From Candidatus Poribacteria bacterium (GTDB lineage: Bacteria > Poribacteria > WGA-4E > PCPOR2b): a stretch of DNA of 64,000 nt. The translations under genes were made by a program, and so were the position numbers. This document shows positions 11,447 through 42,692 of this stretch, piece by piece. Numbering within the stretch: the first letter of the stretch is position 1; each line of letters opens with the position of its first letter. The DNA lies in contig JAJECO010000040.1 in assembly GCA_022822005.1 (NCBI GenBank), forward strand, positions 90 through 64,089. Direction: 5' to 3'. The notes beneath the pieces are model-generated. The model made no database searches. It saw nothing but the letters and a program-made list of their open reading frames with translations, and was not told the DNA's origin.

Positions 11447-13372
11447 ATGAACCGATTTGTGTTTTTAGCAAAATTCACTTTATTGATTCTGTTGCTTGCG
11501 TGTTCTGTCGATGCCGCTATCACTGTTGAGGGTGAAACTGTCCATGTTGAAACGGATAGCTACGCCGTCCGCTTCGATAAGGGCGTGATTGCCCATATCC
11601 ATAATAGGTTGACCGATAAAACTTACACCGTAGGTGAGGGCAGAGAGGGTTGGAGTGGAATATTATACAATCGATATTATTGGGATGACGCAAATATCGA
11701 CACTCTTTGGGCTACCTTCGTTTCTGCGACAGTGATTGATCCATTCCGTGTGGTGCTTGTGTTCCGCCAAGAGGATGCCGAGGTTCGGCTCTTTATTTCC
11801 ATTGACCGTGCCACTGACGATATGCTGATCAATATCGAGGGTGAGTCCGACACCCCCGGTGTGATCGGGATGCAGTGGGGGTGTAGTTATTTGGATATTG
11901 AAAACCTATCGTTTATCCTTCCAATGTACAACGGCCGTGTGGTCGATGGCACGCATGAGGATTTCTACCACAGCCGCGACTATCCCCATTCCGAGTGGGA
12001 AGCGCAATTGGTTATTGCTCAAGGTGAAGATGGTGGATTTTACGTGAGAAATACAGATAATACCTTTCAGTTTAAGCGGTTCATCCTCAGCCGATACAAA
12101 GACGAAGCAGCCACCCTTAATTTTACGACATACAATCAAGCACCTTTTGAGGCACACACCCGTGGTAAATCCGATTTGTGGCGTTTCAATACTTATCGGG
12201 GCGATTGGCATGTGCCTGCCCGCATCTATAGGGACTGGATGGAACAGGCCTTCGATGCTAGGCGGCTATCAGATATGCCGGCGTGGGTTCAAGATATTAG
12301 CTTATTTGTCAGTAGTGCAAACTTACAGGATCCTGGGAGTATCGCTCTGCTTGATAGATTAGCAGAACTCACAGATCCGACAAGAACGGTTGTGATGTTA
12401 GCATCATGGGCTGATGGGGGAGAGTGGTGGTCTGATGAACTTGGCTCCCATCATCCTGATTATATTCCAAAGCCAGGGCTGAAGAATTTCGTTGAAACGG
12501 CACATCGGTACGGGTTTAAAGTCGTGCCTTGGATGATCGCCTGCGCTTTTTCAGCAGATCACCCGCTCTACCCTCATTTCCAGCAATATCAGTGGCGAGA
12601 TACCTGGACGGGAGAATTGACTGGCGAGTGTTGGGCACCGCCCTTGGATCCAGCATGTTATCACCCATCTCACGACCGTGCCGCTTTTATTAATCCTGCG
12701 AGTTCAGAATATAGAGATCTAATCGTTCAAGAACTAAAAGCGGTATGGGAGGAATATGGTGTTGATGGGTTCTTTGTTGATGCCAGTTGGTTTGTGATTA
12801 ACGATGCGAATGGGTTGATTGATGGATTAAATATGGGGCAGGGCATGGATTTGCTACATCGAGAGTTGGCAGAGGCAATGCCGGGTATCATATTAGGTGG
12901 AGAACGGCTTAATGAAGCGTGCTTTGCCCGTAAGAGTTTCGCTCAACGTCCACGGATTACGGACGGCATTGAACCGCATCCAATAAGTTCATTCTTGTTT
13001 TCTCCGTTTACATACGCCATTGGCTTTCCAAAATATAATCCAGACGATCGTCCGGATCTTCATCAACAGGACCAGCAATACTACGAGGTTTGGGATGTTG
13101 TTCCAACCATTAAGGTTTCGTTTACTGGACAACTAGAGGATCACGATGTAGAAATACACAAAATCATTGCAAGCGCACAGAATTGGCAACCTGATTTTGA
13201 GTTTGTCGATGGCGATCTCAATAATGATGCAGTGGTTAATATCCTTGATTTGATCATTGTCGCGAACGATTTAAGACAGGAAATACCCGCTAATTCAAAG
13301 TCAGATGTTAATAGAGACGGACGGGTGGATATACTGGATCTTACTCTTATTTCACAATATATGAGTCAATGA
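11447..13372 (+). CDS. Secreted GH-like TIM-barrel lipoprotein with C-terminal dockerin. Paralog 2 of 3.
   Basis: About 60% identical to paralog 1. N-terminus LLILLLACSVDA carries lipobox LLAC. Dockerin repeats DGDLNNDAVVNILDL / DVNRDGRVDILDL. GGAGGTG SD. Confidence 0.65.
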   Translation: MNRFVFLAKFTLLILLLACSVDAAITVEGETVHVETDSYAVRFDKGVIAHIHNRLTDKTYTVGEGREGWSGILYNRYYWDDANIDTLWATFVSATVIDPFRVVLVFRQEDAEVRLFISIDRATDDMLINIEGESDTPGVIGMQWGCSYLDIENLSFILPMYNGRVVDGTHEDFYHSRDYPHSEWEAQLVIAQGEDGGFYVRNTDNTFQFKRFILSRYKDEAATLNFTTYNQAPFEAHTRGKSDLWRFNTYRGDWHVPARIYRDWMEQAFDARRLSDMPAWVQDISLFVSSANLQDPGSIALLDRLAELTDPTRTVVMLASWADGGEWWSDELGSHHPDYIPKPGLKNFVETAHRYGFKVVPWMIACAFSADHPLYPHFQQYQWRDTWTGELTGECWAPPLDPACYHPSHDRAAFINPASSEYRDLIVQELKAVWEEYGVDGFFVDASWFVINDANGLIDGLNMGQGMDLLHRELAEAMPGIILGGERLNEACFARKSFAQRPRITDGIEPHPISSFLFSPFTYAIGFPKYNPDDRPDLHQQDQQYYEVWDVVPTIKVSFTGQLEDHDVEIHKIIASAQNWQPDFEFVDGDLNNDAVVNILDLIIVANDLRQEIPANSKSDVNRDGRVDILDLTLISQYMSQ

Positions 13373-13433: not shown

Positions 13434-15356
13434 ATGAAACGATTTGTGTTTTTAGCAAAATTCACTTTATTGATTCTGTTGCTTGCGTGTTCTGTCGATG
13501 CCGCTATCACTGTTGAGGGTGAAACTGTCCACGTCGAAACCGATAACTACGTGGTCCGGTTTGACAGGGGGGTTATAACTTATATCCACAACAGGTTGAC
13601 CGATAAAACTTATACGGTGCCCCCAGTCGAGTGGCCATCAGGCTGGACTGGGATGTTGTTCAATCGGTATTGGTGGGAAGGAGAGAATATTTCGACCAGT
13701 TGGGCAGAACTAATCTCCGCAACGCAGATAGATTCACGCAGTGCCGAACTCCTGTTCCACCATGAGGGAACGGATATCCGACTCTCTATTGCTGTTGATC
13801 CGATGACCGACGATCTGTTGATTGATATGCAAGGGGTGTCCGATACTCGCGGGATCGTCGGGATGCAGTGGGGATTGGGTACTTTGGATATGCAGAATTT
13901 ATCGGTAATTATTCCAGCAGCCGGCGGACAAGCCCTTGACGCAACCACGCCTATCGCCCACTATTACTACCTCTACCCCGGCAGCGGTCCCGGTTGGGAA
14001 GCCCAACTCGCTATTTTTCAGGGTGAACGCGGCGGTTTCTACGTTAGAAACACAGACAATACATTGCAGTTTAAGTGGTTCTATTATGACCGACCGGAAA
14101 ACGAAGCTGTGCTTCATTTCGGGACACAAAATCAGGCGCCTTTCGATTCGCACACATCAGGACATTCAACGATGTGGCGATTCAATACCTATGCTGGCGA
14201 TTGGCGGGTGCCTGCTCGTATCTATAGAAACTGGATGGAACAGGCGTTCCAGCCGAGGCGGTTATCCGATATTCCGGGGGCTGAAGATATTACTTTATTC
14301 GTCAGTGCTGTCCCTATAGACACATATGGTTTTCCGTTGCTTGATGGATTAGCGGAGCTAGTGGATCCGACAAAAACGTTGATACTGTTGTGGAACTGGG
14401 CTGATGGAGGAACGTGGTGGTCGGAGGAACGTGAAGCGCATCATCCAGACTATTTTCCAAAGCCGGAGCTTGGACCTTTCGTTGAACACGCACATCAGCA
14501 CGGTTTTCGCATCATGCCTGCTATACTTTCAACCGGTTTTTCACCAACTCACCCGCTCTACCCACATTTTCGGCAATATCAAATTAGAGATACCTGGACA
14601 GGAGAGATCATAGAGAATCCACCGCCTTCCCACCCATCTGAGCAACTTGTTGAAACTATTAATCCTGCGAGTTCAGAATATAGGAACCTAATTGTCGAAC
14701 GCCTAAAGTCGGTATGGGAAGATTACGGTGTAGACGGTTTCTTTCTTGATGCCAACCACGGTGTATATAACGATGGGAATGGGTTGATTGATGGGTTAAG
14801 TATGGCGCAAGGGATGGCGTTACTGCATAAGGAGTTAGCGGAAGCGATGCCGGGCATTATGTTGGGGGGTGAAAGATTGCATGAAGCGACTTTTGCGCAT
14901 ACAACTTTCGCACAACGTCCCCATGATCTGGTGGACAGAAACAAGGAAAAGCTGCATCCGATTAGTGGGTTTCTGTTCTCGCCGTTTACACACGCCATCG
15001 CGTATTTCCCAAAATACCCGGATGATGATCCCGCATATCATCAAGAACTTCTCGATTACGGTGAGGTCTGGGGCATAATTCCAACGCTAAGATTTTGGGA
15101 GTTGTATCAACTACAAGGACAGCTTACTCAAGAATTACTTGCCTCGGCACGCAATTGGGAACATCAGTATGGCTTAAACGGGGATGTCAACGGCGATGGG
15201 ATTGTTAATATTCTGGATTTAACGCTTGTTGGGCAAAACGTTGGGGCAATGCCTCTCAGCCACATACAAGCAGATATCAACGGTGATGGGTTGGTTGATG
15301 TGCTGGATTTAATTTTAGTTGCTAATATGTTCGAGGGCACAACGACAGTACGGTAA
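13434..15356 (+). CDS. Secreted GH-like TIM-barrel lipoprotein with C-terminal dockerin. Paralog 3 of 3.
   Basis: The first ~45 codons and the SD are nearly identical at DNA level to paralog 2. Core is closer to paralog 1. Dockerin repeats at the C-terminus. Confidence 0.65.
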   Translation: MKRFVFLAKFTLLILLLACSVDAAITVEGETVHVETDNYVVRFDRGVITYIHNRLTDKTYTVPPVEWPSGWTGMLFNRYWWEGENISTSWAELISATQIDSRSAELLFHHEGTDIRLSIAVDPMTDDLLIDMQGVSDTRGIVGMQWGLGTLDMQNLSVIIPAAGGQALDATTPIAHYYYLYPGSGPGWEAQLAIFQGERGGFYVRNTDNTLQFKWFYYDRPENEAVLHFGTQNQAPFDSHTSGHSTMWRFNTYAGDWRVPARIYRNWMEQAFQPRRLSDIPGAEDITLFVSAVPIDTYGFPLLDGLAELVDPTKTLILLWNWADGGTWWSEEREAHHPDYFPKPELGPFVEHAHQHGFRIMPAILSTGFSPTHPLYPHFRQYQIRDTWTGEIIENPPPSHPSEQLVETINPASSEYRNLIVERLKSVWEDYGVDGFFLDANHGVYNDGNGLIDGLSMAQGMALLHKELAEAMPGIMLGGERLHEATFAHTTFAQRPHDLVDRNKEKLHPISGFLFSPFTHAIAYFPKYPDDDPAYHQELLDYGEVWGIIPTLRFWELYQLQGQLTQELLASARNWEHQYGLNGDVNGDGIVNILDLTLVGQNVGAMPLSHIQADINGDGLVDVLDLILVANMFEGTTTVR

Positions 15357-18123: not shown

Positions 18124-20061
18124 TTGCAAGAGACATCCAGACGCAGGAAATATGAAGGCGCGACGGCGCGTGCAATACAGATTGGTCTGTTTTTAGTTCC
18201 CGTCAACGTCTATTGGGTGACAGTTGTGGAGATGAAGTACCGCGCAGAGGCGACTGCCCTGCCGATATTCATCTACCCCATTTTTATTCTGTTCTGCCTC
18301 GTTGTTTTCAACAACTGCCTATCGAAGGTGTGGGAGCGGATTAGCCTATCCTCCGGAGAGCTGCTCACCATCTATTCCATGCTCGTGATTTCGACCTCAA
18401 TCGCGTCGTATGGGATGCTGCAAGATCTATTCGCATTCTTCCTTCACCCGTACCAATTTGCCTCACCAGAAAATGAGTGGAAAGAACTTTTTTTCCATTA
18501 TATCCCGCCTTGGTTCACCGCCAACACGCCCTATGATATTCTCGCGGAATACTATGAAGGAGACTCAACACTTTACAAAGCGAAACACCTTAACGCCTGG
18601 GTGCAACCCGTATTGGTTTGGACAGTCTTCACGTTGGTGTTACTATTCATGCTCCACTGCATGAATACCTTAGTCCGTCGGCAGTGGGTGCAGACGGAAC
18701 GATTGGCGTTTCCAATTATCCAACTGCCGGTAGCGATGGTGCAGTCATCACGTTTCCTTAGGAACGGTTTTCTGTGGCTCGGCTTCGCTATACCCGCCGT
18801 CTTAGATCTGATGAACGGACTACACGTGCTCTTTCCATCCGTTCCATATATCCACCTTAAGTTGACATCCATCAGTCAATATTTCGCTGAGAAACCGTGG
18901 AGCGCGATGGCAGGCACACGACTTTCCTTCTATCCCTTCATGATTGGACTCGGTTTTTTCCTACCACTTGACCTCTCCTTTACCTGCTGGTTCTTCTATG
19001 TGCTGCGCCGGCTAATCAGTGTTTTCACCACTTATTTGGGGCTTACGCATCTCCCCGGCTTCCCGTACTTTCACGAACAAGCCGGCGGTGGCTGGTTCTG
19101 CCTATTCTTTATCGCGATATGGGCAACGCGGAAGCATTTGGCTTTTGTGTTTCGGTCCGCATTTTCTGCCACCCCATCGGTTGATGCTGATGAGCCGATG
19201 CGCTATCGAACAGCCCTGATTGGATTAGCTGGTGGATTTCTGTTTATGGCTATCTTCTCCGCTCAAGCGGGCATGTCAATAGTCGCCATTCCCATCTTCT
19301 TCGGTCTCTATTTTGCGATCGCCCTCGTTATTACCCGGCTACGGGCAGAGTTTGGCGCACCCCACAGAATATCCAATAATCCATCGGATGTGATGGTAAC
19401 CTGTTTCGGAACGCTGGCTTGGGGGGGGCGCAACTTAACTGTGATGAGTTTCTATCAGTGGTTTAACCGGAGTTACCGTTCGCACGCAAATCCGAATCAG
19501 TTTGAACCACTCAAGATGGCTGAGGTTGCCAACATCAACAGTCGTCGATTGGTTTGGGCGATGATGCTTGGATCTGCGGTTGCGCTTATTGTAGGGATGT
19601 GGATAAATCTGGACATGATGTATCGCGACGGGGCGATCGCGCGGGTATCCTTCTTTAAGATTTGGGTATCCAATACGGCATTCCGACGGTTGGAAAATTG
19701 GCTGTATCATCCGATGCCCCCCGATCTGCTACGGATGACATTTATGGGCGGTGGGATGGTATTGACCTTGATTCTGTTCGTCTTGCGGATGCGTTTCTTT
19801 TGGTGGCCGCTTCACCCCGCTGGCTACCCACTCGCACTTAGCTCCTCAATCGACTATTTCTGGTTCACCTTTTTCATAAGTTGGGCACTAAAAGCGGTTA
19901 TCCTGAAGTACGGTAAAGTTAGAGGATATCAACGCGCCATCCCATTCTTTTTCGGCCTGATTCTGGGAGATTTCATAGTGGGAGGGCTCTGGATGGTCTA
20001 CGGCGTCTTGACGCATCAGCAGGTTTATATGATCTACCTGAATGGGGGTACGTGGTATTAA
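18124..20061 (+). CDS. Polytopic integral membrane protein of unknown function.
   Basis: 645 aa with at least 12 hydrophobic segments. No recognisable transporter signature. Start uncertain; alternative ATGs lie downstream. Confidence 0.55.
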   Translation: MQETSRRRKYEGATARAIQIGLFLVPVNVYWVTVVEMKYRAEATALPIFIYPIFILFCLVVFNNCLSKVWERISLSSGELLTIYSMLVISTSIASYGMLQDLFAFFLHPYQFASPENEWKELFFHYIPPWFTANTPYDILAEYYEGDSTLYKAKHLNAWVQPVLVWTVFTLVLLFMLHCMNTLVRRQWVQTERLAFPIIQLPVAMVQSSRFLRNGFLWLGFAIPAVLDLMNGLHVLFPSVPYIHLKLTSISQYFAEKPWSAMAGTRLSFYPFMIGLGFFLPLDLSFTCWFFYVLRRLISVFTTYLGLTHLPGFPYFHEQAGGGWFCLFFIAIWATRKHLAFVFRSAFSATPSVDADEPMRYRTALIGLAGGFLFMAIFSAQAGMSIVAIPIFFGLYFAIALVITRLRAEFGAPHRISNNPSDVMVTCFGTLAWGGRNLTVMSFYQWFNRSYRSHANPNQFEPLKMAEVANINSRRLVWAMMLGSAVALIVGMWINLDMMYRDGAIARVSFFKIWVSNTAFRRLENWLYHPMPPDLLRMTFMGGGMVLTLILFVLRMRFFWWPLHPAGYPLALSSSIDYFWFTFFISWALKAVILKYGKVRGYQRAIPFFFGLILGDFIVGGLWMVYGVLTHQQVYMIYLNGGTWY

Positions 20062-25779: not shown

Positions 25780-28700
25780 TTGAATTTGCTCGTCACAAAA
25801 ATGTTCCGCCCTCCTTCCCTTTTCATCCTCGCACTTATTTTTGCTACGCTACATCCTCCCGCTGCTCACGCCGAACCTGTCCTTAAAGACGTATCGTTGA
25901 CGGAATCCTACATCCAACGCCGCTCACTGGTGCTCGACCCGAAAGAAGACATCGCTCCCTCCGAACCCGCGGAACCGTCGAAAACCCAGAATTTCTGGGC
26001 ACCTACCGCAGCTACAGATCCGTGGAAAACTCCGCCACCTCTGACCGACAAGGAAACAGAAGAACAGGACCTCCGCCTCGAGATGTTGACCCCATATTTT
26101 GAGTCGTTGCGCCGGTGGAAGAATCCAGATTACCTGCTCGATCTCCGCGACCTTGATGACCTACGTGCAGGAAAACGGGAAGAGCAGGAGAAGGGAATTG
26201 CGCTCCCGCTCCAGTCCAACCTTCAGATCACAGGGCATAAGTCGGTAACGGTTGAATTACACCAAACACACTATTTCGGCGAGGGCGATATTAATCGTTA
26301 TGGTGGCAGCTACGGAGGCGGTAGTTTCGGTTCTGGGCTCGATCTCGGGTTGACCTCCTCCTACAGCTACGATAGTTTTGGGAGCGGTTTCGGTGGAGGG
26401 TACGGTGGAGGGTATGGTGGGGGATATGGGAGCGGATTCGGCGGAGGGTTTGGCGGATATGGCGGCGGATACGGGAGCGGTTTTGGAAGCGGTCGTTCTG
26501 GGGTGCCCCGCGACACTGGGATAAATATTCGCCAAACTCTCGAAGTAGGTCTACACGGTCGGGTTGGGGAACACACCCACGTTGAGGTGGATTATAACGA
26601 CTCTGGCGGCGGATATGGCGGCGGATACGGGGGCTATAGCAGCGGTTATGGGGGCGGATACGGTGGAATGAAAGAGCAGAAAATTCGTGTTTGGTATGAA
26701 GGAACGGAGACAAGCATCCTCAAAACCCTCTCATTTGGTGACTTGACACTCAATCTGCCCAACGCTCGCTTTCTGAATGTCAATCGTAATCTATTTGGGC
26801 TTGAGGCGGTTGCCCAGCTTGGTGGTGCAAGGTTGACTGCGTTCGGCTCTCGCAGCAAAGGTCTTTCGGATATACGTCGTTTCCGCGGGGAATCGCGACG
26901 CGCGGCAGGCGGCAGGGGTCACCAAATTCCCGACGCAAATTATGTCAAAGAACGCTTTTACCTAATTCAACTCGGCGAAGATGAGCTTCTCCACGACGCC
27001 TACCGTCCAATTAAGCACGGCAGCGAGGAGATCTATATTGACGACAACGTTGCAGGTAACAATCAGGGCGGCGTACGGACGGGGCGTGGTTACTTCAATC
27101 TGCAGCAAGCAGGTCAGGACTATAACATCAATTACGAAACCGGTGAAATCGAGTTCTTAAGCCCAATTTCTGCCAGTTATGAAATCGTGGTCGCTTATGA
27201 ATATCTCGGCGATGGCGGTGGTGTGGTTGGGAGTCCGGGAAACGTCTTTGCAGACGAGAACGGGGACGGCACAGTCGACGAAGAGGGTGAGGAAATCGGC
27301 TATGTTACCATCAAAGGGAAGAGCCTGCGCGGAACAGAATCGCGGCGTGTGTACAGCCTCGGCAACCGGAATATTAGTCCACGAGACTATCAGATCGTGA
27401 TTGTGCGTCAGGGGAGCGGCGAATCTTTTGATACGGGGAGCGAAGAAGTCCCGTACATCCAGATCTTTGGACTCGATGAAAATGGGGATGGCATCGTTGA
27501 TCCAGAATTTATTGACTTTGACAGGGGCCTCCTGACATTCCCTGATTTGCGTCCCTTTGTCATTGATGACCCTCAAAGTCCGTATTTCCAATTTAGTGAT
27601 CGACTAAGTAACGAAGCGATCTATCATGAGAATCCACGGACGACTGATGCCGCCTATACAATCATCGTCGACTATTCTTTTCAATCGGAGACGTATAACG
27701 TCGGGTTGTTTGTAATCCCCGGTAGCGAGAAAGTCCGACTCAACGGGCGACAGCTGCAACGCGATGTTGATTACACGATGGTGTATGAGGTAGGAAGTAT
27801 CCGTTTCTTTACTGAACTTGATGAATTCGATGAGATCGTGGTCGAATTTGAGAGGACTCCATTTGGCGGATCATTGCAACAGACGGTCGCTGGCCTGTGG
27901 TTAGAATATTCCTACGTTCCCAAACAGAAGAAAGTAGAGGAAAAAAAGGAGCAGGAGTTCGACCGGTTTGAAAGACTCATCGGTACAACCGATCGTCCGG
28001 AAACCGACGCTATGTTTGAAACGAGCGATACCACCTTTGGGCGCAGATCTTCCGATGGATTTGGTAGCAGGTTCGGTGGCAGCCGATTTGGCGGCGGTCA
28101 GTCTGGGCGGTTTGGAGGTGGGTTCGGCGGTGGTGGTTTTGGCGGATATTCAGGTTTCGGTGGTCGATCAAGGCGAGGATTGCGTGCAGGAGGCAGCAGC
28201 TACTTCAGTCCAACCTTCCAAAAAGGATTTAGCTTCGCAACAGGCTATATCCTGAACACTGGACAAAAACCGTCTCGTATTCCTGACGTCAATGGTGCAC
28301 CGAGCAGATTGCAAGCTGTTAACTTCAACACCACCTTTGGTAGAGATTTCAATTTGGCGCCGCTGTTGAATCCGTTGCCACTCATCGCGATGCGTAATTT
28401 CCCGCTGTCTATAAATTTCAGCGGGGAAACAGCGTTCTCCCACAACAACCCGAACAGTGTTGGCCTCGCTCTAATTGATAGTATGGAAGGGACACGAGAG
28501 GCGTCAAACACTCCCACGTTCAAACACCACTGGCGCGTGAGCAGCCTACCTGTAGCAGAAGGCGTAACTCTGGACAATCGGGCGCTGTTTCGTGTGCTTG
28601 CGAAGGATCGCAATGAATCCCAAGCTGTTGGCAACTATATGCGCAATCGTGAGGTGCCTGCATCGGTAATCAATCCGCTGGCAACTTCGACGGAAGAACG

Positions 28701-31700
28701 CCTCATCATGGAAGTGGGTTATGATCTTACGGATGTCATTGAGGAGTGGGGTGGTTTCTCGTACGGCCTTTCCGCTTCTGGGGAAGATTTCTCGGAGCGC
28801 CAATTCCTTGAGATTTGGTTTCGAGTACGCGGTGACTCCGATGTGACCTTGCATATTGATTTAGGTGTCGTGAGCGAGGATAGCGATTTGGACAACCGAC
28901 TTGACACCGAAGATCTGCCACCGGAGTTGGAAGATATCAATGGGGACGGGAAAATTGACACGTTGGACCTCGATCTGGAAAACCTACCTGCCTCCCAAAA
29001 ATTCCGTGCAAATGGTTCGTTGGATACAGGCGAGGATGTCGGCTGGGAGTATAGTGCCGGGTTCCAACCGGCGCAAGTTGGTTCCAGCAACACAGTTTTA
29101 GATACAGAAGACCTTAACGGAGATGGGGTCCTGGACGCTATTGATGCGTATCTCGAAATTAAGATCCCGCTCAACGATATCCCCGAAGAATGGCTAAAAC
29201 GTCAACATCCGAATGGCTGGACATTTCTGAGTATTCCTCTCAGCGCAGCGACATCAGAAGGCACCCGCTTACCCAACCTTGGATATGTCCAACATCTACG
29301 TTTCTGGTTACAGAAGAACAGGTCTGGAGCCGTTACAGGTAAATTTGAGTGGGCATCAATTGAGGTTGTCGGAGTTCAATGGGAACGCGGAGTCGTAACG
29401 CGGAATGACGCCATTACCAATGATGCCGCTGAGCGGTTTACCGTTGGCACCAAGGATAATTTCAACTTCAATGACTATCACGCCGCCTATGAACAGATCA
29501 AAGATCAGGACGATTTTAGGAAGTTACATCCCTTCACAGAAGCGACATACGGCTATCAACAACGGCAGCAGCGCGAACAAACGCTGACGTTGGATTATGT
29601 GCTTCTGCCAGAATCCTTCGGCGTGACGTCGCGGGTACTGCGCGGTCGACAACACGGTGAAGGACAAGATTTTTCAAAACATGATACGCTCAGGCTGTGG
29701 ATCTACGGAGACAGAAGCGAGACGACATTTGTGTTGCGCCTTGCGCCAAGTATCCGCACTGGGTTCCGGTCCTCCTATCGCTCTGCAGGTCCCTTCGAAA
29801 ATCCACAAGATCAAGAAGAAGATATCAACGTCTTTGAAAACTTGAGAGACTATTACGAATACACGCGTGTAATCGACTTTGATGGTTGGAAGTTGATTGA
29901 AATCGAGTTAAGCGATCTGAAGCGAAACGAGTACCCGGAAGCCGGTCTATCGGGCAGTATTATACCGCAGACAGGTCAGATTGACCAATTGGGCACGGAT
30001 CTATCAATTGCAGAAACGGTAGATCCCGACGAACCCGACGGGCATCCGGATGGTTTTGTTGTGCGAGGAACAAATAGTTCCCAACTTTCGATAAAGAACA
30101 TCGGCGGCATCCTGATTGGGCTCCGCAACGACACCCCACGGGAAGTTGGTGGGGAGGTGTGGGTCAATGAGATCCATCTGAGCAACCCGATCGTCCGTTC
30201 AGGTTGGGCGCGGCGTGCCAACATGGATGTTAAACTCGGCAATCTGATTAAGGTTAACGGTGGATATGCAAAACAGGACAAAGACTTTGAGAATTCTGCT
30301 GGCGATACTGGACGCCAACGTCGCCACGATTTGGGTTATAGCACAACTAGCAATGATTTTAATATCAACAGCGAGCTTAGCCTCTTCTCTTGGCTACCCA
30401 TTCGCTATTCTGTCCGAGAGGAGGAATCCGAAACAGAAAGTCAGCGCGGCTCGTTTAGCTCCTTCCAAAGCGGAAAGAGCAAAACCAAGAATCGGGACTT
30501 CTCGGCGACTTTTAACCTACGCCCACTGCCAGTGTTAGGATTCGCGCTCAACCGCCAAGATTTCTGGAATGAACGACAGGGAACAGAACTCAGCGATCTC
30601 TATACCGGCTCTTTCCAGTTCGGTCTTGGCTCGTTTTTTGGACTTGACGCTCAGTTTCACCACGAGGATGTTGAAACTGATTCATCGACAGCAACAGATA
30701 CTTCTAGTAGCGGTTCTTCATTTGGAAGCTATTATGGACGAAGCCGAGATGAAAAGGTCGATAGCGGTAGTATTTCACTCGATATTAGCCCATTCGAAAG
30801 TTTCAGTCTGAACCCGCAGTATGAGGTCCGTCGAACGCTTGAGAAACGCGATCCCAACGACCAAGGGGGACGGAGTTTTAGCAGCTTTGCACAGTCCACA
30901 GATCCAATCGAGGAGACAGAAGAACCGACAGCAGTACCGATTTTCACCATTGCGGAACGAGAACATCGACTTGCTCTGAACCCGCGTCTGAATCGTGATC
31001 TGTTAGGTATCCGTCCCACGCTGAATAACCGAGTTAGCCTAAACGAAAACTGGTTCGGCGATCGGAAAGATGCCCGGATCAGTGCGAATATCAGTTTAGG
31101 GCTCAATGTTCGTCCGCGTGTGTGGTTCGGTTGGTTATTCCACGAACCAGAGCCTGAAGTCCCGTCCGAAGAAGGAGATGGGCAGGAAACAGAAAAGGAA
31201 GGGCAGGAGGGAAATAAGGAACAGAGCGGTGAACAATCTAAGCCGTCCGAAGAATTTGATAGCTTTGAGGCAGAGACGCGTCTTGAGGAAAGCCGCCAGC
31301 GACAACTTGACAGGCTTGAACAGATGGGGGTCGATTCCGACACAATTGAAGATGCGGAGAATCAACGTGGAGACTGGATTCGTCGCGACAAGGCGGAAAT
31401 GGCGCGGAAGTTGAGAGAGCGAAAGAGTAAGGGAGAAGAAGAGGAGAAAAAGGAGGCAGGCATAATTCAACGAAGCATCGAAAGCCTTGGGCTGAATGCG
31501 AATGTCAGTCTTAATAACCAAGATTCTCTACGCGGATTGGATCCGGGTATGCGAATCGCAGACATCCTACAGCTTCCAGACGAGGCTGAAGAACGAACCC
31601 AGTCGCGCCAAGGCACACGCTACAGTTTTCGCACATCGGTTGATCCGTGGAGTTGGGCTTCACTTGGCGGCAACATTGACCGCAGCAATAACTTCACCAA

Positions 31701-32292
31701 GTCATCAAGCACCTCCTCCCGAGCTGAATCCGTTCGTTATGAAGGAGATATTAAGATTTTCAACGCGAAAAACACATCGAGCCTTCAGTTGAGATACGGT
31801 TATACGCTCCGGGATCAGAGCAACATCAATACCCAGATTGGTCAGAGCACCGCTCACGAACCTTCGATTAGCTGGAGTCATACGTGGAGAGAGACGACGA
31901 GAACCGCATTTGGTATCCGTCTCACACAGCGTGACGGGGAACGCAGCGGAATTGACACAACTTCGTTCATTGTTACACCAAATGTTAGCATCGATTACCG
32001 AGTGCGGATAGAAGGTGGGCTTCGTCTCCCCTTTGTGGGCAAGATTTCGCTGGAGCACGATTTAGACCTCAGCAACACGCTCTCAACGGTTATCCGTCGT
32101 GAACGGTTCGGAGCAAATAGGGAAGAACGGTCTGAGCGATATGAGACATCTCTGCGGGTTGGATACAGGTTGAGCGAGCGTCTCACTGCTGATATGAATC
32201 TCGGGTTGAGCTACAATAACGACCGCGTCGAAGAGGGGCGGGATTTCATTTCGGTGGCAAGTGCGTTGACGGTTCGTGGAGAGTTTGAGTAA
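25780..32292 (+). CDS. Giant (2170 aa) secreted protein. It has Gly/Tyr/Phe-rich low-complexity repeats, several DxDGDG Ca-binding (dockerin/EF-hand-like) motifs, an E/K-rich charged segment, and a C-terminal region of alternating-polarity strands suggesting an outer-membrane beta-barrel.
   Basis: Signal peptide MFRPPSLFILALIFATLHPPAAHA|EP (likely true start ATG 25801). GGYGGGYGGGYGSGFGGGFGGYGGGYGSGFGSG blocks at roughly aa 175-230, 275-300 and 755-800. C-terminus ...SVASALTVRGEFE. Single uninterrupted ORF. Confidence 0.65.
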   Translation: MNLLVTKMFRPPSLFILALIFATLHPPAAHAEPVLKDVSLTESYIQRRSLVLDPKEDIAPSEPAEPSKTQNFWAPTAATDPWKTPPPLTDKETEEQDLRLEMLTPYFESLRRWKNPDYLLDLRDLDDLRAGKREEQEKGIALPLQSNLQITGHKSVTVELHQTHYFGEGDINRYGGSYGGGSFGSGLDLGLTSSYSYDSFGSGFGGGYGGGYGGGYGSGFGGGFGGYGGGYGSGFGSGRSGVPRDTGINIRQTLEVGLHGRVGEHTHVEVDYNDSGGGYGGGYGGYSSGYGGGYGGMKEQKIRVWYEGTETSILKTLSFGDLTLNLPNARFLNVNRNLFGLEAVAQLGGARLTAFGSRSKGLSDIRRFRGESRRAAGGRGHQIPDANYVKERFYLIQLGEDELLHDAYRPIKHGSEEIYIDDNVAGNNQGGVRTGRGYFNLQQAGQDYNINYETGEIEFLSPISASYEIVVAYEYLGDGGGVVGSPGNVFADENGDGTVDEEGEEIGYVTIKGKSLRGTESRRVYSLGNRNISPRDYQIVIVRQGSGESFDTGSEEVPYIQIFGLDENGDGIVDPEFIDFDRGLLTFPDLRPFVIDDPQSPYFQFSDRLSNEAIYHENPRTTDAAYTIIVDYSFQSETYNVGLFVIPGSEKVRLNGRQLQRDVDYTMVYEVGSIRFFTELDEFDEIVVEFERTPFGGSLQQTVAGLWLEYSYVPKQKKVEEKKEQEFDRFERLIGTTDRPETDAMFETSDTTFGRRSSDGFGSRFGGSRFGGGQSGRFGGGFGGGGFGGYSGFGGRSRRGLRAGGSSYFSPTFQKGFSFATGYILNTGQKPSRIPDVNGAPSRLQAVNFNTTFGRDFNLAPLLNPLPLIAMRNFPLSINFSGETAFSHNNPNSVGLALIDSMEGTREASNTPTFKHHWRVSSLPVAEGVTLDNRALFRVLAKDRNESQAVGNYMRNREVPASVINPLATSTEERLIMEVGYDLTDVIEEWGGFSYGLSASGEDFSERQFLEIWFRVRGDSDVTLHIDLGVVSEDSDLDNRLDTEDLPPELEDINGDGKIDTLDLDLENLPASQKFRANGSLDTGEDVGWEYSAGFQPAQVGSSNTVLDTEDLNGDGVLDAIDAYLEIKIPLNDIPEEWLKRQHPNGWTFLSIPLSAATSEGTRLPNLGYVQHLRFWLQKNRSGAVTGKFEWASIEVVGVQWERGVVTRNDAITNDAAERFTVGTKDNFNFNDYHAAYEQIKDQDDFRKLHPFTEATYGYQQRQQREQTLTLDYVLLPESFGVTSRVLRGRQHGEGQDFSKHDTLRLWIYGDRSETTFVLRLAPSIRTGFRSSYRSAGPFENPQDQEEDINVFENLRDYYEYTRVIDFDGWKLIEIELSDLKRNEYPEAGLSGSIIPQTGQIDQLGTDLSIAETVDPDEPDGHPDGFVVRGTNSSQLSIKNIGGILIGLRNDTPREVGGEVWVNEIHLSNPIVRSGWARRANMDVKLGNLIKVNGGYAKQDKDFENSAGDTGRQRRHDLGYSTTSNDFNINSELSLFSWLPIRYSVREEESETESQRGSFSSFQSGKSKTKNRDFSATFNLRPLPVLGFALNRQDFWNERQGTELSDLYTGSFQFGLGSFFGLDAQFHHEDVETDSSTATDTSSSGSSFGSYYGRSRDEKVDSGSISLDISPFESFSLNPQYEVRRTLEKRDPNDQGGRSFSSFAQSTDPIEETEEPTAVPIFTIAEREHRLALNPRLNRDLLGIRPTLNNRVSLNENWFGDRKDARISANISLGLNVRPRVWFGWLFHEPEPEVPSEEGDGQETEKEGQEGNKEQSGEQSKPSEEFDSFEAETRLEESRQRQLDRLEQMGVDSDTIEDAENQRGDWIRRDKAEMARKLRERKSKGEEEEKKEAGIIQRSIESLGLNANVSLNNQDSLRGLDPGMRIADILQLPDEAEERTQSRQGTRYSFRTSVDPWSWASLGGNIDRSNNFTKSSSTSSRAESVRYEGDIKIFNAKNTSSLQLRYGYTLRDQSNINTQIGQSTAHEPSISWSHTWRETTRTAFGIRLTQRDGERSGIDTTSFIVTPNVSIDYRVRIEGGLRLPFVGKISLEHDLDLSNTLSTVIRRERFGANREERSERYETSLRVGYRLSERLTADMNLGLSYNNDRVEEGRDFISVASALTVRGEFE

Positions 32293-33931
32293 GCGTTAGG
32301 GATTGATTCGGGTTCACGTTGGCAAGTTGCTCGGCATCTCCACTGGGCCATTCTACCTTGATCAGATCAATTTGAGCGTCATTCCCAATTCCGAAGATAG
32401 CCGTGAGTTCACTCTGTGAACAGTAGCTTGCGCCACTTTTCACCGTACGTGTCTGCGTACCAGATTTCGATTGCACGGTAATTTTCGCGCCGATTCCACT
32501 CCGATTGCTCTTGGTCCCGATCAATTTCAACTTGATCCAGTTGTTGCGATTCCCGCCATCGTTACGGTATAGCCGGGCTGCCGTATTGGAAGCATTCACC
32601 AACACATCCCAATCGCCATCATTATCAATATCCCCATACGCTGCGCCGCGCCCGACGATCGGTTTTTGGAGATCCGAGCCAACCTTTGGCGCCACGTCCT
32701 CAAACTGACCGCTACCGATATTATGGAACAGATGCGGCGGTTGTGCGTAAGTCACTTCGCTCTGCACGGCGTTGATGTCATTTTCAATGTGACCATTTGC
32801 AGCAAAGATATCGAGTTTTCCGTCGAGGTCGAAGTCGAAGAAGAAGCAACCAAACGTCAGCGTTAGCAGGCTGGTATATCCGATGTTGGCAACAGGCGCA
32901 TCGTCAATAAAGAACTCCCCCTCGTTATGGTAGAGATTCATCATCTCATTGGAGAAGTTTCCGATTACGAGGCTTTCCCTACCGCTGCCATTATAGTCCC
33001 CGGCATCAATGCCCATCGCTCCCCGGGCGACACCTCTTTCATCGTAAGCGATGCCGGCGAGCATTCCTCTTTCGATAAAGGTGCCGTCCCCGTTGTTCTG
33101 ATAGAGTTTATTCGGTTGGGTGTCATTCGCCTCAAAGATGTCGGGAAAGCCATCGGCATTGTAGTCAAACACGCAGACGCCCAGTGATTTACTGGTGAGG
33201 TCCTCGATCAGGGCAATCCGTGAGACATCGGTGAAGGTTCCGTCCCCACGATTCCTGAATAGTTTGCTCGCTTGCCCCGGATACGATCGGGGTCCGCAGT
33301 ACGACTGATTTACGCCGTCTAATGTGCAGAAAAGATTTGTTTCAGGTGTCCACTCTATGTAATTGGCAACAAAGATATCGAGATTGCCATCTTTATCGTA
33401 ATCCAACCAAGCACAGCTTGTCCCGAAACCGGGATTATCAATCCCCGCCGATTCTGTTACATCAAGAAAGGTCCCATCTCCCTGATTCTGGAACAACCGA
33501 TCCGCTGTCAGGCAGCTGATATAGAGATCGTCATCGCCGTCGTTATCGTAGTCGGCAACGGCAACACCGAGTCCATACAGTTCTACGGCAAGTCCGGCAG
33601 TTTCTGTAGTATCGGTAAAAGTTCCGTCCTGGTTGTTTCGGTAGAGCCCCAGCGTTTGCCGGTTTCCGGTTGGGTGTCCGCCCCAATCCTTACCGTTTAC
33701 CAACAGAATATCTTGCCAACCATCGTTGTCGTAGTCAATAAACGCACAGCCAGAAGCGATCTCTTCTGGAACGTATTTCCCGCCAAACGCACCGGTGTTG
33801 TGGACAAAGTCGATCCCTGCCTCCGTCGCAATATCGACAAATTGAGGGAGCGGTTCTGCGGCGATTGTGCTGTGAATCCAGATCAGAGATATGCAGATAA
33901 AAAGCCATTTTGTTAATGATGTAGTTTTCAT
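32246..33931 (-). CDS. CRTAC1-family protein: FG-GAP/VCBS repeat beta-propeller with C-terminal ASPIC/UnbV domain, secreted.
   Basis: Signal peptide MKTTSLTKWLFICISLIWIHSTIAA|EP (start moved to 33931). Repeated DxDxDG FG-GAP motifs. C-terminal GIGAKITVQSKSGTQTRTVKSGASYCSQSE (UnbV-like). Its 3' end overlaps the giant ORF by 47 bp, convergent. Confidence 0.8.
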   Translation of the reverse strand: MKTTSLTKWLFICISLIWIHSTIAAEPLPQFVDIATEAGIDFVHNTGAFGGKYVPEEIASGCAFIDYDNDGWQDILLVNGKDWGGHPTGNRQTLGLYRNNQDGTFTDTTETAGLAVELYGLGVAVADYDNDGDDDLYISCLTADRLFQNQGDGTFLDVTESAGIDNPGFGTSCAWLDYDKDGNLDIFVANYIEWTPETNLFCTLDGVNQSYCGPRSYPGQASKLFRNRGDGTFTDVSRIALIEDLTSKSLGVCVFDYNADGFPDIFEANDTQPNKLYQNNGDGTFIERGMLAGIAYDERGVARGAMGIDAGDYNGSGRESLVIGNFSNEMMNLYHNEGEFFIDDAPVANIGYTSLLTLTFGCFFFDFDLDGKLDIFAANGHIENDINAVQSEVTYAQPPHLFHNIGSGQFEDVAPKVGSDLQKPIVGRGAAYGDIDNDGDWDVLVNASNTAARLYRNDGGNRNNWIKLKLIGTKSNRSGIGAKITVQSKSGTQTRTVKSGASYCSQSELTAIFGIGNDAQIDLIKVEWPSGDAEQLANVNPNQSLTLTQTLHEPSTHLPPK

Positions 33932-33972
33932 TATTGGCTCACAAAAAGATAAAAGTGCAACACACTCAGAGA

Positions 33973-34006
33973 AACCGAGTTTTTTCCTCAAAACTCGGTT
34001 TCTTTG
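33973..34006. terminator. Candidate bidirectional intrinsic terminator: CCGAGTTTT-loop-AAAACTCGG followed by TTTCTTTG (plus) / UUUCUCU (minus).
   Basis: Perfect 9-bp inverted repeat read directly. 37 nt downstream of the minus-strand Gfo/Idh/MocA gene stop. Confidence 0.4.
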
Positions 34007-34042
34007 CACAATTTCTTAACATGACCTCACTATTGATTGTGT

Positions 34043-38929: not shown

Positions 38930-39925
38930 TTATCGGTCAAGCTGTTTGACCCATCCCCATATCGTAAACTTTCTGCTTCTAGGTGAAACTGAAAAAGGTG
39001 AGTTAAACCATGCAGGATCACTGTCAGGCTGCGGATTATTGGTGAGATTTTGAGAATTGCCCCCATCGGCGTCCATCACGTAGATTTCGGCATTCCCATT
39101 CCTACCAGACACAAATACAATCCGGTTATTGTCAGGGGACCAGGAGGGAAATAAGTCATAAACGCCATTTTCAGTGAGTCTTTGTGTATTCTCCCCATTG
39201 GCATCCATCACGTAGATTTCATCAGTGGGCCAACCGCCTTTGTCAAGGACCCAATCCCTATCAGACGAGAATGCAATCCGGTTACTGTCAGGAGACCATG
39301 AAGGTGAACGGTCATTATGGCGATCATTGGTGAGGTTTCGCTGCTTACCCCCATTCGCATCCATCACGTAGATCTCAAAGTTTCCATCCCTGTTAGACGA
39401 GAAGGCAATCCGGTTACCGTCAGGAGACCATGAAGGTGAACTGTTATGACGGCGATTATTGGTGAGTCTACGCCGATTATCCCCATCGGCGTCCATCACG
39501 TAGATGTTCATGTTCAGGTCCCCATCCCTATTAGACACAAAGGCAATCCGTTTACCGTCAGGAGACCAAGAGGGGGCCCATTCATCAAAGTCATTGTTAG
39601 AAAGGTTGCGCTGATTCCCACCATCGGCGTCCATCACGTAGATTTGCCGGTTCCAATCCCTATCACTCCTCTCAGACACGAAGGCAATCCGTTTACCGTC
39701 AGGAGACCAAGAGGGGGACCTGTCATGAAAGTCATTCTTGGTGAGTCTTTGTAGATTCTCTCCATCGACGTCCATCACGTAGATTTCAAAGCGTATACCG
39801 TTCCAATCCCTATCAGACTCAAAGGCAATCTGTGTTTGTGCTTCAACGACTATTATCAGCGACGTTAGACTCAAGACTACAACACTAGCTAAAATCAAAT
39901 GGGCAAGACTATATTTTCGTTGCAT
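38930..39925 (-). CDS. Membrane-anchored/secreted PD40 (TolB-like WD40-like) beta-propeller repeat protein. Paralog 1 of 3.
   Basis: N-terminal signal/anchor MQRKYSLAHLILASVVVLSL. Six or more PD40 repeats (EIYVMDADGGNQRNLTNN...SPSWSPDGKRIAFVS). AAGGAGG SD. Confidence 0.8.
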   Translation of the reverse strand: MQRKYSLAHLILASVVVLSLTSLIIVVEAQTQIAFESDRDWNGIRFEIYVMDVDGENLQRLTKNDFHDRSPSWSPDGKRIAFVSERSDRDWNRQIYVMDADGGNQRNLSNNDFDEWAPSWSPDGKRIAFVSNRDGDLNMNIYVMDADGDNRRRLTNNRRHNSSPSWSPDGNRIAFSSNRDGNFEIYVMDANGGKQRNLTNDRHNDRSPSWSPDSNRIAFSSDRDWVLDKGGWPTDEIYVMDANGENTQRLTENGVYDLFPSWSPDNNRIVFVSGRNGNAEIYVMDADGGNSQNLTNNPQPDSDPAWFNSPFSVSPRSRKFTIWGWVKQLDR

Positions 39926-39992: not shown

Positions 39993-40988
39993 TTATCGAG
40001 CACCCTGTTTGAGTTGTCCCCACATCGTAAACTTTTTGCCCGCGGGGGCAACGACAAAAACAGGAACAGACCATGCAGGATTACCATCATTCCTCGGATG
40101 ATTGGTGAGCTTTTGCGGATTTCCCCCGTCAGCGTCCATCACGTAGATCTCCCCTTGGTTATCCCTATAGGACGAGAAGGCAATGCGTGTGCCATCAGCC
40201 GACCATGAGGGTGACACGTCCCTATCGCGATTTTCAGTGAGTCTTTGCTGATTACCCCCATCGGCGTCCATCACGTAGATTTCATAATTTGCAAAGTCCC
40301 CCTTCCTATCGGATGAGAAGACAATGCGTGTACCATCGGGTGAGTCGTCATTTTGGCGGTTTTCAGTGAGCCTTTGCGGATTACCCCCATCGGCGTCCAT
40401 CACGTAGATTTCAGAAGTGAGGCCACTGTCGGCTATAAAGTGCCCATCCCTATAAGAGGAAAAGGCAATGCGTTTGCCATCAGCCGACCATGAGGGATGC
40501 TGGTCAGTACCAGGATTGTTAGTGAGTTTTTGCGGATTCCCCCCATTGTTGTCCATCACGTAGATTTCAAAGTTCACCTCCCTATCAGAGGAAAAGACAA
40601 TGCGTTTGCCGTCAGGAGACCATGCAGGAGAGTGATCAGAATTGGGATCATTAGTGAGGTTTCGCTGATTTTTCCCCTCCGCGTCCATCACATAGATTTC
40701 AAAAGTGGACCACACGCGGCCCTTAGGGACGTGCCCATCCCTATCAGACACAAAGGCAATCCGTGTGCCATCGGGCGACCATGAGGGTGCTAAGTCCCTA
40801 TCGGGGTGATTGGTGAGGTTTCGCTGATTTTTCCCATCATCGTCCATCACGTAAATTTCATAGTTCCTATCCCTATCAGACTGGAAGGCAATCTGTGCCT
40901 GTGTATCAGCGTCTACTACCAGTAACGTTAGCCCTAACATGACAACGACAGCTAAAATCAAATGTGCGAGATTGTATCTCCGTTCCAT
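39993..40988 (-). CDS. PD40 beta-propeller repeat protein. Paralog 2 of 3.
   Basis: Same architecture as paralog 1 (MERRYNLAHLILAVVVMLGL..., repeated EIYVMDADGGN / SPSWSADG). AGAGGAGG SD. Confidence 0.8.
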   Translation of the reverse strand: MERRYNLAHLILAVVVMLGLTLLVVDADTQAQIAFQSDRDRNYEIYVMDDDGKNQRNLTNHPDRDLAPSWSPDGTRIAFVSDRDGHVPKGRVWSTFEIYVMDAEGKNQRNLTNDPNSDHSPAWSPDGKRIVFSSDREVNFEIYVMDNNGGNPQKLTNNPGTDQHPSWSADGKRIAFSSYRDGHFIADSGLTSEIYVMDADGGNPQRLTENRQNDDSPDGTRIVFSSDRKGDFANYEIYVMDADGGNQQRLTENRDRDVSPSWSADGTRIAFSSYRDNQGEIYVMDADGGNPQKLTNHPRNDGNPAWSVPVFVVAPAGKKFTMWGQLKQGAR

Positions 40989-41267: not shown

Positions 41268-42230
41268 TTATTGGTCAACGCCCTTGAGCCATCCCCACAT
41301 TATAAACTTCTTATAAGAGGGGGTAACTGAAAGAACAGCGTTATACCATGCAGGAGCTCCCTCATCCTCAAGATGATTGGTGATGTTTCGTGGATTCGCC
41401 CCATCGGCATCCATTACGTAGATGTCCGGATTAAAATCCCTCGTCCTATTCGACACGAAGGCAATGCGTTTACTGTCGGGCGACCATGAGGGTGAATAGT
41501 CCCTATCAGGATGATTGGTGAGGTTTCGCTGATTCCCTCCATCGGCGTCCATCACGTAGATATCTGTGCGAAGAGCCCCAGGTCCAAAGGCATCAAAGGC
41601 AATGTGTTTACCGTTAGGGGACCATGAGGGATTATTGTCATGAGTGTTATTAAAGGTGAGGTTTCGCCGATTGCTTCCATCGTCATCCATCACGTAGATG
41701 TCCATGTCCCCATCCGCCCTCCTAGGGAAAGCAAAGATAATGCGTCTACCGTCAGGAGACCATGAGGGATTATTGTGATTAAGGAGATTCTCAGTGAGGT
41801 TTAGCTGATTGTCCCCATCGGCATCCATTACGTGGATTTGTTCGTTCCGCACGAAGACAATGCGTTTACCGTCAGGAGACCATGAGGGCTCCCTATCATC
41901 ACCAAGATTATTAGTGAGATTTCGCTGATTATCCCCATCGGCGTCCATCACGTAGATTTGCCGGTTCCCATTCCTATCATTCCTATCAGAACTGAAAACA
42001 ATGCGTTTACCGTCAGGAGACCAAGAGGGCTCCCTATCATCACCAAGATTGTTAGACAGGTTTAGCTGATTGCCCCCATGGTTGTCCATCACATAGATTT
42101 CCCAGTTCCAATCCCTATCAGACATGAAAACAATTCGTGCTTGTGCGTCAGTGGTTACCATCAGCGGCGTCAGACTCAAGACTATAATGCTAGCTAAAAG
42201 GATATGTGTCAAATTGTATCTCCGGTGCAT
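41268..42230 (-). CDS. PD40 beta-propeller repeat protein. Paralog 3 of 3.
   Basis: Start moved to ATG 42230 (MHRRYNLTHILLASIIVLSL), which matches the paralog N-termini and has a GGAAGGA SD. Repeated IYVMDADGDNQRNLTNN / SPSWSPDGKRIVF. Confidence 0.8.
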   Translation of the reverse strand: MHRRYNLTHILLASIIVLSLTPLMVTTDAQARIVFMSDRDWNWEIYVMDNHGGNQLNLSNNLGDDREPSWSPDGKRIVFSSDRNDRNGNRQIYVMDADGDNQRNLTNNLGDDREPSWSPDGKRIVFVRNEQIHVMDADGDNQLNLTENLLNHNNPSWSPDGRRIIFAFPRRADGDMDIYVMDDDGSNRRNLTFNNTHDNNPSWSPNGKHIAFDAFGPGALRTDIYVMDADGGNQRNLTNHPDRDYSPSWSPDSKRIAFVSNRTRDFNPDIYVMDADGANPRNITNHLEDEGAPAWYNAVLSVTPSYKKFIMWGWLKGVDQ

Positions 42231-42692
42231 TTGACATTCCTTCCCTGTTTTCAAATCGGTTGTCTATCCTCTGGATTTGATAGTGGTCAGATTGGGGGCA
42301 ATCCCTTTACAATTATAATTATAACATAGACACAAATTCCTACTGGGAGTTCTCAAGTAAATTAGGTTCTGTTGACATTTACCAATTCGTAGGTTGGGTT
42401 GAACGGTTAAACGAGAATCCTTATCAAGTGCAATAGAGGTTTGGTCGATCAACAACACCTGCTTATAGACAGATAGAGTGAAATCCAACAAAGTTTTTCA
42501 TCAGGAAGTCCCCTTTTCGAAAAGCATTTTCGTAAACGTGATCTTTTGTACCATCCCGATTGAATCGGGATGATCCCCGCCTACAAACTAACAGTTTGCG
42601 CTACATGTGTCAGATTAGCCGATGATTACAGCGTTTGCTCAATTAGCGACATCAAAATGTCAACACGTCCTAGCAACTCGGTTTATTAATAT

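Follow-up and report, generated by a model that had tools for sequence, protein, structure and literature searches.

The 64-kb window considered here (64,000 nucleotides of contig JAJECO010000040.1, assembly GCA_022822005.1) derives from a member of Candidatus Poribacteria, a group of dominant sponge symbionts. Within it lies one very long gene, which encodes a hitherto unannotated and very divergent Poribacteria relative of SprA/Sov, the outer-membrane translocon of type 9 secretion systems (T9SS), and which carries three loops that are unmatched in the SprA-like proteins examined. The list of open reading frames (ORFs) gives a single intact ORF at 25780..32292 (+) with a TTG start at 25780 and a product of 2170 amino acids (aa). 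From the first ATG, the coding sequence occupies 25801..32292 (+) and the protein has 2163 aa, the numbering used throughout this text. By direct reading of the translation, this product begins with MFRPPSLFILALIFATLHPPAAHA and continues with EP after the cleavage point. The N terminus is read by eye as a classical Sec signal peptide, putatively aa 1-24 with cleavage after AHA (25801..25872, +). This agrees with the initial annotation, an earlier description of the same DNA from its letters alone, and all the sequence strings quoted there are present in the translation. The region ahead of the first long strand in the AlphaFold2 (AF2) model, aa 25-138 (25873..26214, +), is formed by short helices of low confidence and includes the conserved motif PYLExLRRW. 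By analogy, it may be comparable with the N terminus of Flavobacterium johnsoniae SprA, which lies in the periplasm, where SkpA binds it (PMC10994853).

The initial annotation had proposed a giant SprA-like translocon as a guess, and the guess has proved well founded. SprA is Fjoh_1653 of F. johnsoniae (PDB 6H3I, 6H3J, 8GL6, 8GL8) and Sov is its equivalent in Porphyromonas gingivalis, both being the T9SS outer-membrane translocon. The protein matches the NCBIfam model for the T9SS outer membrane translocon Sov/SprA, TIGR04189, in five stretches with E=1.5e-43, and Pfam PF14349 is precomputed on many of its homologues. The core that best matches the SprA models lies at 29083..30399 (+), with TIGR04189 covering aa 1095-1515 and Pfam SprA_N covering aa 1431-1533. 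A family profile (A1) was built from an alignment of 58 members, comprising 54 of the Poribacteria-type clade and four distant SprA-like proteins. Against the PDB, this profile retrieved F. johnsoniae SprA (6h3i, 6h3j, 8gl6 and other 8gl* entries) with E=1.6e-90 over profile positions 130-1556. Positions 130-673 correspond to SprA 79-769 and positions 750-1556 to SprA 767-1691, and the runner-up reached only E=0.14.

Structural comparison led to the same protein. AF2 modelling was conducted on two overlapping halves, aa 25-1224 and aa 964-2163, fed with the family alignment. For the second half, with a mean predicted local distance difference test (pLDDT) score of 73.3, the top PDB match in Foldseek was SprA 8gl8_A (E=2e-30, template modelling (TM) score 0.50), and the next family was MtrB at 3.5e-06. 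For the first half (mean pLDDT 65.4), 8gl8_A was again the top match (E=1.9e-38). Identity to SprA within these structural alignments is only 11-14%. Sequence profiles and the comparison of predicted structures thus confirm the gene as a homologue of the SprA/Sov family, and both the homology and the similarity of fold are direct observations.

The strand layout predicted for the protein resembles that of SprA, which is built as a capped barrel of 36 strands (PMC10994853). Counting by eye gave about 38 long strands in the two half models, which represent halves and not a closed barrel. Barrel-type long strands span the whole chain, and two large folded domains bearing four Asp-rich loops are inserted between them. 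The initial annotation had assigned a probable beta-barrel to the C terminus. Barrel strands are indeed predicted in the half models, and twelve long strands occupy the last ~265 residues (31489..32280, +; AF2), but the strands are dispersed along the entire chain, like those of SprA, instead of being confined to its end. These last strands run into the conserved terminus LTVRGEF[EQ], which, read by eye, resembles the signal at the C terminus of barrel proteins of the outer membrane. Another ~15 long predicted beta-strands are found at aa ~1436-1770 (30106..31110, +) in the model of aa 964-2163. SprA and Sov share with the present protein the size class (2163 aa here, 2403 aa in SprA), the putative signal peptide, long (here predicted) barrel strands distributed over the sequence and separated in places by large folded domains, and the conserved Asp-rich loop motifs.

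Of the two large domains inserted between strands, the first (aa ~364-684) contains two DxNxDGxxD calcium-loop-like motifs at aa 485-496 and 559-570 (27253..27510, +), reading DENGDGTVD from aa 485 and DENGDGIVD from aa 559. Two more, at aa 1045-1058 and 1104-1115 (28933..29145, +), are located in the second inter-strand domain (aa ~883-1435) and read DINGDGKID from aa 1045 and DLNGDGVLD from aa 1104. In the first domain, the motif residues are at least 90% conserved in the 58-sequence alignment, and the motif at aa 559-570 aligns to F. johnsoniae SprA. In the second domain, the pattern D[TS]EDL[ND]GD is conserved enough to be used for searching. These motifs had been described as dockerin- or EF-hand-like; the four are present as described, but they do not form dockerin domains. 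This interpretation was rejected because Pfam Dockerin_1, matched in part by the second pair, scores 19.9 bits, under its cutoff of 22.9, and only positions 2-15 of the 57 in the model match. Judged from the alignments, the four isolated loops belong to the SprA-like family itself, in which these calcium-loop-like motifs are conserved.

A Glu/Lys-rich (EK-rich) insertion occupies aa 1783-1895 (31147..31485, +). Its first ~35 residues are of low confidence and the rest are predicted to form four helices. The charged segment noticed earlier corresponds to aa 1783-1888, 50% of which are charged residues. This insertion is one of the differences from SprA/Sov, since the F. johnsoniae counterpart is not alignable and distant SprA-like proteins are not EK-rich at this site. 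Within the otherwise variable helical insertion, a motif RGDWIxRDKAE is conserved (aa 1856-1867; 31366..31401).

A further difference from SprA/Sov is found in three Gly/aromatic low-complexity blocks. Block B1 (aa 164-235; 26290..26505, +) consists of 47% Gly and 21% Tyr/Phe/Trp and holds a conserved core, SGLDLGLTSSY. Block B2 (aa 268-289; 26602..26667, +) is a Gly/Tyr block with 64% Gly. In block B3 (aa 709-800; 27925..28200, +), a charged N-terminal half is followed by RFGG/GGF repeats. The protein contains 33 triplets of the type [GS][YF][GS], 23 of them within the 186 block residues, whereas shuffled controls (n=500) gave 7.9 +/- 2.7 and a maximum of 17, a low complexity greater than expected by chance. 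At the DNA level, the blocks include imperfect 12-nt repeats. In the N-terminal AF2 model, pLDDT <50 is found mainly in B1, B2 and B3, each lying between long strands, and all three are predicted to be disordered and to form loops that separate barrel strands.

One check proposed in the initial annotation was the presence of the Gly-rich blocks in orthologues. Each of the 54 Poribacteria-type clade members has them; composition is maintained there, while sequence and length are not. Median Gly contents across these members are 36% for B1, 54% for B2 and 26% for B3, and lengths range over 53-84, 10-28 and 58-141 aa, respectively. In the four distant SprA-like proteins of the alignment, B3 is reduced to 0-1 aa and B2 to 4-8 aa, and the B1 site has ordinary sequence. 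F. johnsoniae SprA presents the same picture, two short turns and one site of ordinary sequence as opposed to ~186 aa of Gly/aromatic disordered loops. The strands flanking B3 are contiguous there, profile positions 673 and 750 falling on SprA residues 769 and 767, and the B2 site is, as in the distant homologues, a turn of 4-8 residues. No Gly/aromatic-rich windows were detected in the ~100 long distant SprA-like representatives examined. Because the loops occur in all 54 clade members and are absent from these ~100 proteins, they are, on alignment evidence, a derived and conserved trait of the Poribacteria-type clade. Conserved low-complexity loops of this kind are unusual for an outer-membrane translocon. 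Genes bearing them are present in sponge-derived and seawater-derived metagenome-assembled genomes (MAGs) alike. In seven more distant members (P0073-P0077, P0080 and P0081), the low-complexity blocks are Tyr/Ser-rich and not Gly-rich.

The blocks share composition, motif density and predicted disorder with low-complexity domains of eukaryotes in which [G/S]Y[G/S] or FG abounds, such as those of FUS-like prion-like proteins, FG-nucleoporins and loricrin- or silk-like proteins. They differ from these domains in the lack of homology and in being, according to the models, short loops within the barrel of a bacterial outer-membrane protein. One purely hypothetical idea is that B1-B3 (~186 aa) may form a cohesive meshwork, FG-nucleoporin-like or prion-like, in or over the wide SprA-type pore. 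Such a meshwork would seal the idle channel and let cargo pass, as a built-in gate replacing or supplementing the separate Plug of Bacteroidota. Any cohesive or gating behaviour of the loops is conjecture, and this role is regarded as quite improbable. If it were true, and if the GldLM motor were also missing, Poribacteria would possess a differently gated and differently energised type 9 secretion outside the Fibrobacteres-Chlorobi-Bacteroidetes (FCB) group.

The same resemblance to structural proteins could indicate a very large adhesin of the cell surface, a protein that anchors an S-layer or one built like an autotransporter, in which the Gly/Tyr segments would be displayed as silk- or loricrin-like structural material. 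Deinococcus SlpA and autotransporter barrels, which Foldseek retrieves as weak matches, point the same way. However, these matches are at least 20 orders of magnitude weaker than those to SprA, with E values between roughly 1e-4 and 1e-3 for autotransporters, and the scans returned no adhesin or autotransporter family of Pfam or NCBIfam. Moreover, the blocks account for only ~186 of the 2163 residues and are predicted to be loops between barrel strands. A type 5 secretion autotransporter, with a C-terminal barrel of 12-16 strands and an N-terminal passenger, was likewise rejected, there being no family match and only weak Foldseek similarity. The initial annotation had mentioned an adhesin as an alternative to the translocon; nothing in the family scans favours it, and a displayed structural protein is considered very unlikely.

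Homologues of the protein have been found throughout Poribacteria. A protein search yielded 85 relatives, of which the top one is 100% identical, in a full-length graded series (2100-2390 aa) descending to 40% identity. A scan with one genome per species yielded 350 relatives, and the best 80 of their loci were taken as the locus set. All 80 loci contain a full-length colinear gene with 52-95% identity, the orthologue in L017 (OZ244825.1) being 95% identical. They come from Candidatus Poribacteria or from MAGs of uncultured bacteria, and many are closed chromosomes. Conservation across the phylum is therefore directly observed. Each named homologue that was looked up is labelled "hypothetical protein". 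The NCBI taxonomy lists Poribacteria as a candidate phylum that does not belong to the FCB group.

The unusual length and the low-complexity repeats, and nothing more, could also raise the suspicion of an assembly or frameshift artefact joining unrelated genes. The colinear full-length orthologues in 80 independent Poribacteria assemblies, closed chromosomes included, led to the rejection of such a fusion, and its likelihood is practically negligible. The ORF described at first as uninterrupted is intact in the window, and no sign of a frameshift or chimera was found.

Beyond the phylum, an exhaustive search of the core (aa 805-1782) against 1.84 billion representatives gave 525 relatives. A handful of clade representatives came first, followed by a gap and then by SprA-like proteins of 1600-2100 aa at ~30% identity. 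The nearest outgroups are SprA-like proteins from further candidate phyla such as Candidatus Desantisbacteria. They resemble the Poribacteria proteins in their ~30% identity over the core and in being labelled hypothetical, but they are shorter (1600-2100 aa) and lack Gly/aromatic-rich windows (~100 long ones). Altogether, P0262 and P0276 (Candidatus Desantisbacteria) and about 500 other representatives are SprA-like proteins of 1600-2100 aa from outside Bacteroidota, and most of them are unannotated. Those that bear a name are called hypothetical or 'CBM11 domain-containing', and some proteins of this population pass the SprA equivalog cutoff. The distant clade members P0073-P0077, P0080 and P0081 (e.g., L083:10001-17167) show 40-45% identity, have 2280-2390 aa and carry precomputed Pfam LysM (PF01476) matches, which are 'faint' for P0081. 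These matches would suggest contact with peptidoglycan in the distant members.

T9SS is usually said to be restricted to the Bacteroidota/FCB group. The window's relatives provide several candidates for partners of the SprA-like protein. In locus L033 (chromosome OZ244616.1), a PorU-like C25 sortase of at least 2132 aa (L033:2-6400, +) scores 425.3 bits with NF033707 (cutoff 420) and carries at its end a type-A C-terminal domain (CTD), the sorting domain of T9SS cargo. Directly after it, a PorV/PorQ-family protein of 334 aa (L033:6900-7904, +) scores 102 bits with NF033709 (cutoff 90). The pair is located 2-10 kb upstream of the SprA-like orthologue, its end being ~2 kb away. The same pair recurs in L081 (L081:2944-11131; PorU-like 424.8 bits, PorV_fam 114 bits) and in L082 (L082:1669-11053; PorV_fam 116 bits), where the PorU-like protein reaches 416.2 bits against the cutoff of 420. 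L082 and the SprA-like locus L079 are on one record, CAZOAL010000002.1, and the L081 pair appears to share a contig with the SprA-like homologue P0007, both contigs being 6,266,011 bp long. For the PorV-like protein, 281 relatives were retrieved at E<=1e-10. The four of them that are named to a taxon belong to Candidatus Poribacteria, and one of these is called "UPF0164 family protein".

Two proteins, in L033 and L043, have type-A CTDs over the TIGR04183 cutoff of 23, at 26.2 and 27.8 bits. A hidden Markov model derived from these two CTDs recovered seven CTD proteins among the 1244 ORFs of the sampled loci, including the PorU-like protein and two adjacent beta-propeller proteins. The co-occurrence of the SprA-like gene with PorU-like and PorV-like proteins and with CTD cargo is thus directly observed in related genomes, and in this respect, too, Poribacteria resemble the organisms with SprA or Sov. 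No type-A CTD cargo was detected in the 64-kb window. Neither a GldLM/PorLM motor nor a GldKN/PorKN ring was seen in the window or in ~2 Mb of partly annotated neighbouring DNA, although no search was aimed at them.

Kamke et al. reported in 2014 that Poribacteria contain many proteins with TIGR04183, especially WD40 proteins, and Por structural genes were not reported (PMC3909097). This is the only publication found that links Poribacteria with T9SS, SprA or gliding. The puzzle posed by that study, sorting-domain proteins with apparently no Por machinery, is likely solved in part by the SprA-like gene as the missing pore, with PorU-like and PorV-like partners found as well. The gene is probably the missing translocon of Poribacteria, and it was probably overlooked because its scores fall under the curated cutoffs.

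The best explanation, to which a probability of roughly 75% is given, is that the gene encodes an SprA-type outer-membrane translocon, which works with the PorV-like and PorU-like proteins in exporting and processing type-A CTD cargo. The protein would be exported by Sec through its signal peptide and inserted into the outer membrane, as suggested by the conserved C-terminal LTVRGEF. There it would form a barrel of roughly 36 strands, with the two large calcium-loop-bearing domains folded between strands. The most likely partners would be the PorV-like carrier barrel and the PorU-like C25 sortase, which form a conserved pair elsewhere in Poribacteria genomes. Together, pore, carrier and sortase would export periplasmic proteins bearing a type-A CTD. 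Transport itself, its energy source, and the place and role of the Gly/aromatic loops and of the EK-rich helical insert are those parts of the scheme that we infer. SprA-type translocons would then extend to a phylum outside Bacteroidota and the FCB group. The scheme would also show by which specific route the eukaryote-like repeat proteins, thought to mediate the interaction between sponge and symbiont, could be exported.

Several observations weigh against this explanation. With TIGR04189, the protein scores 148.4 bits, below the 200-bit equivalog cutoff, and with Pfam SprA_N it scores 26.1 bits, marginally below the cutoff of 27. A single-sequence search of PDB sequences returned no relevant relative, and the last ~600 residues match SprA by predicted structure only. 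Pfam scans detected no T9SS genes in the 64-kb window, and the genomes in which PorU-like and PorV-like genes were demonstrated are relatives of the window's. Gene order around the 80 loci is kept within subclades only and not across the phylum. There is no universally conserved neighbour in these loci, and no T9SS gene adjoins the SprA-like gene except for the PorU-like/PorV-like pair of L033; around the distant members P0072 and P0081, no T9SS neighbours were found. Given the scores under the curated cutoffs, the gene is best described from its sequence as a divergent SprA/Sov subfamily and not as an equivalog by the NCBI criterion. Another Poribacteria member reaches 159 bits with TIGR04189. 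The nearest outgroups exceed the cutoff, with 567 bits for P0274 and 211 bits for a Desantisbacteria protein, and so tie the Poribacteria clade to bona fide SprA.

A further class of secreted proteins has to be considered in this context. Many Poribacteria proteins end with the tag (A/P)V(E/S)Pxx(K/R)L(T/A)(T/V)xW(G/A)x(L/V/I)K and 0-5 further residues, here named the WG tag. The tag can also be written as ..K[LF][TAI][TVIM]WGx[LV]K plus 2-5 residues (for example, RKFTIWGWVKQLDR). It terminates 30 of the 1244 Poribacteria ORFs and has zero internal occurrences in 542,232 aa. The tag is attached to unrelated signal-peptide proteins, including many ORFs in L002-L074, and in the window it is found on three tandem TolB-like PD40 propellers (38930..39925, 39993..40988 and 41268..42254, all -). 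No NCBIfam model covers it, and a literature search for the tag found nothing. From its distribution, the WG tag may represent a phylum-specific sorting signal.

Next to the SprA-like gene, at less than ~300 bp, 23 of the 80 loci contain a gene for a ~250-aa secreted LamG/Laminin_G_3-like protein with the tag in its WG or WA form. It is found, for example, upstream of the SprA-like gene at L034:8621-9379 (+), and across the 23 loci it is either on the same strand or divergent. Another such tagged protein (L083:19439-20194, -) lies 2.3 kb from a 40%-identical relative of the LysM type. The 64-kb window does not contain this tagged LamG-like protein, which may be an accessory factor or a cargo.

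These tagged proteins lend some weight to a different function, in which the giant barrel is derived from SprA and is no longer a classical T9SS translocon. It would instead be a pore for another Poribacteria-specific export, e.g., of proteins with the ..KLTTTWGxLK tag, or a passive channel for large solutes without the GldLM motor. The score under the SprA equivalog cutoff, the clade-specific insertions and the lack of linkage to T9SS genes in most genomes are in line with such a change of function. So are the WG-tagged, signal-peptide-bearing LamG-like protein adjoining the gene in those 23 loci and found also near the LysM-type relative, and the tag itself, which is commoner than type-A CTDs and never internal. 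Motor genes, too, were not seen in the window or in the ~2 Mb of neighbouring DNA, where no search was aimed at them. On the other side, the same genomes hold PorU-like and PorV-like proteins and type-A CTD cargo, a set that only makes sense with an SprA-type pore, and the connection between tag and gene rests on neighbourhood in one subclade only. A repurposed pore is consequently judged unlikely, and a T9SS-type translocon is preferred.

The surroundings of the SprA-like gene in the window are metabolic, with hisB upstream and genes for ASPIC/UnbV, GFO/IDH/MocA, PhyH, FG-GAP and acetate kinase proteins downstream. The convergent neighbour (32246..34009, -; ORF list and Pfam) encodes an ASPIC/UnbV and FG-GAP protein, CRTAC1-like. 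Its 3' end overlaps that of the SprA-like gene by exactly 47 nt (32246..32292), precisely as the initial annotation had stated, and the identical convergent overlap is kept in 18 genomes of related Poribacteria. The gene counts as a neighbour and no more, as nothing ties its product to the SprA-like system.

Other genes of the window belong to different families. A 1030-aa ORF (891..3983, -) has the domains of a Type ISP restriction-modification enzyme, namely the coupler domain, an N6 methylase and Type_ISP_C. Three tandem paralogues of 640-647 aa (9468..11411, 11447..13372 and 13434..15356, all +) combine DUF6259 with a C-terminal type I dockerin. Finally, a 645-aa protein (18124..20061, +) comprises DUF6785 and DUF6784, with a Pfam score of 534 bits.

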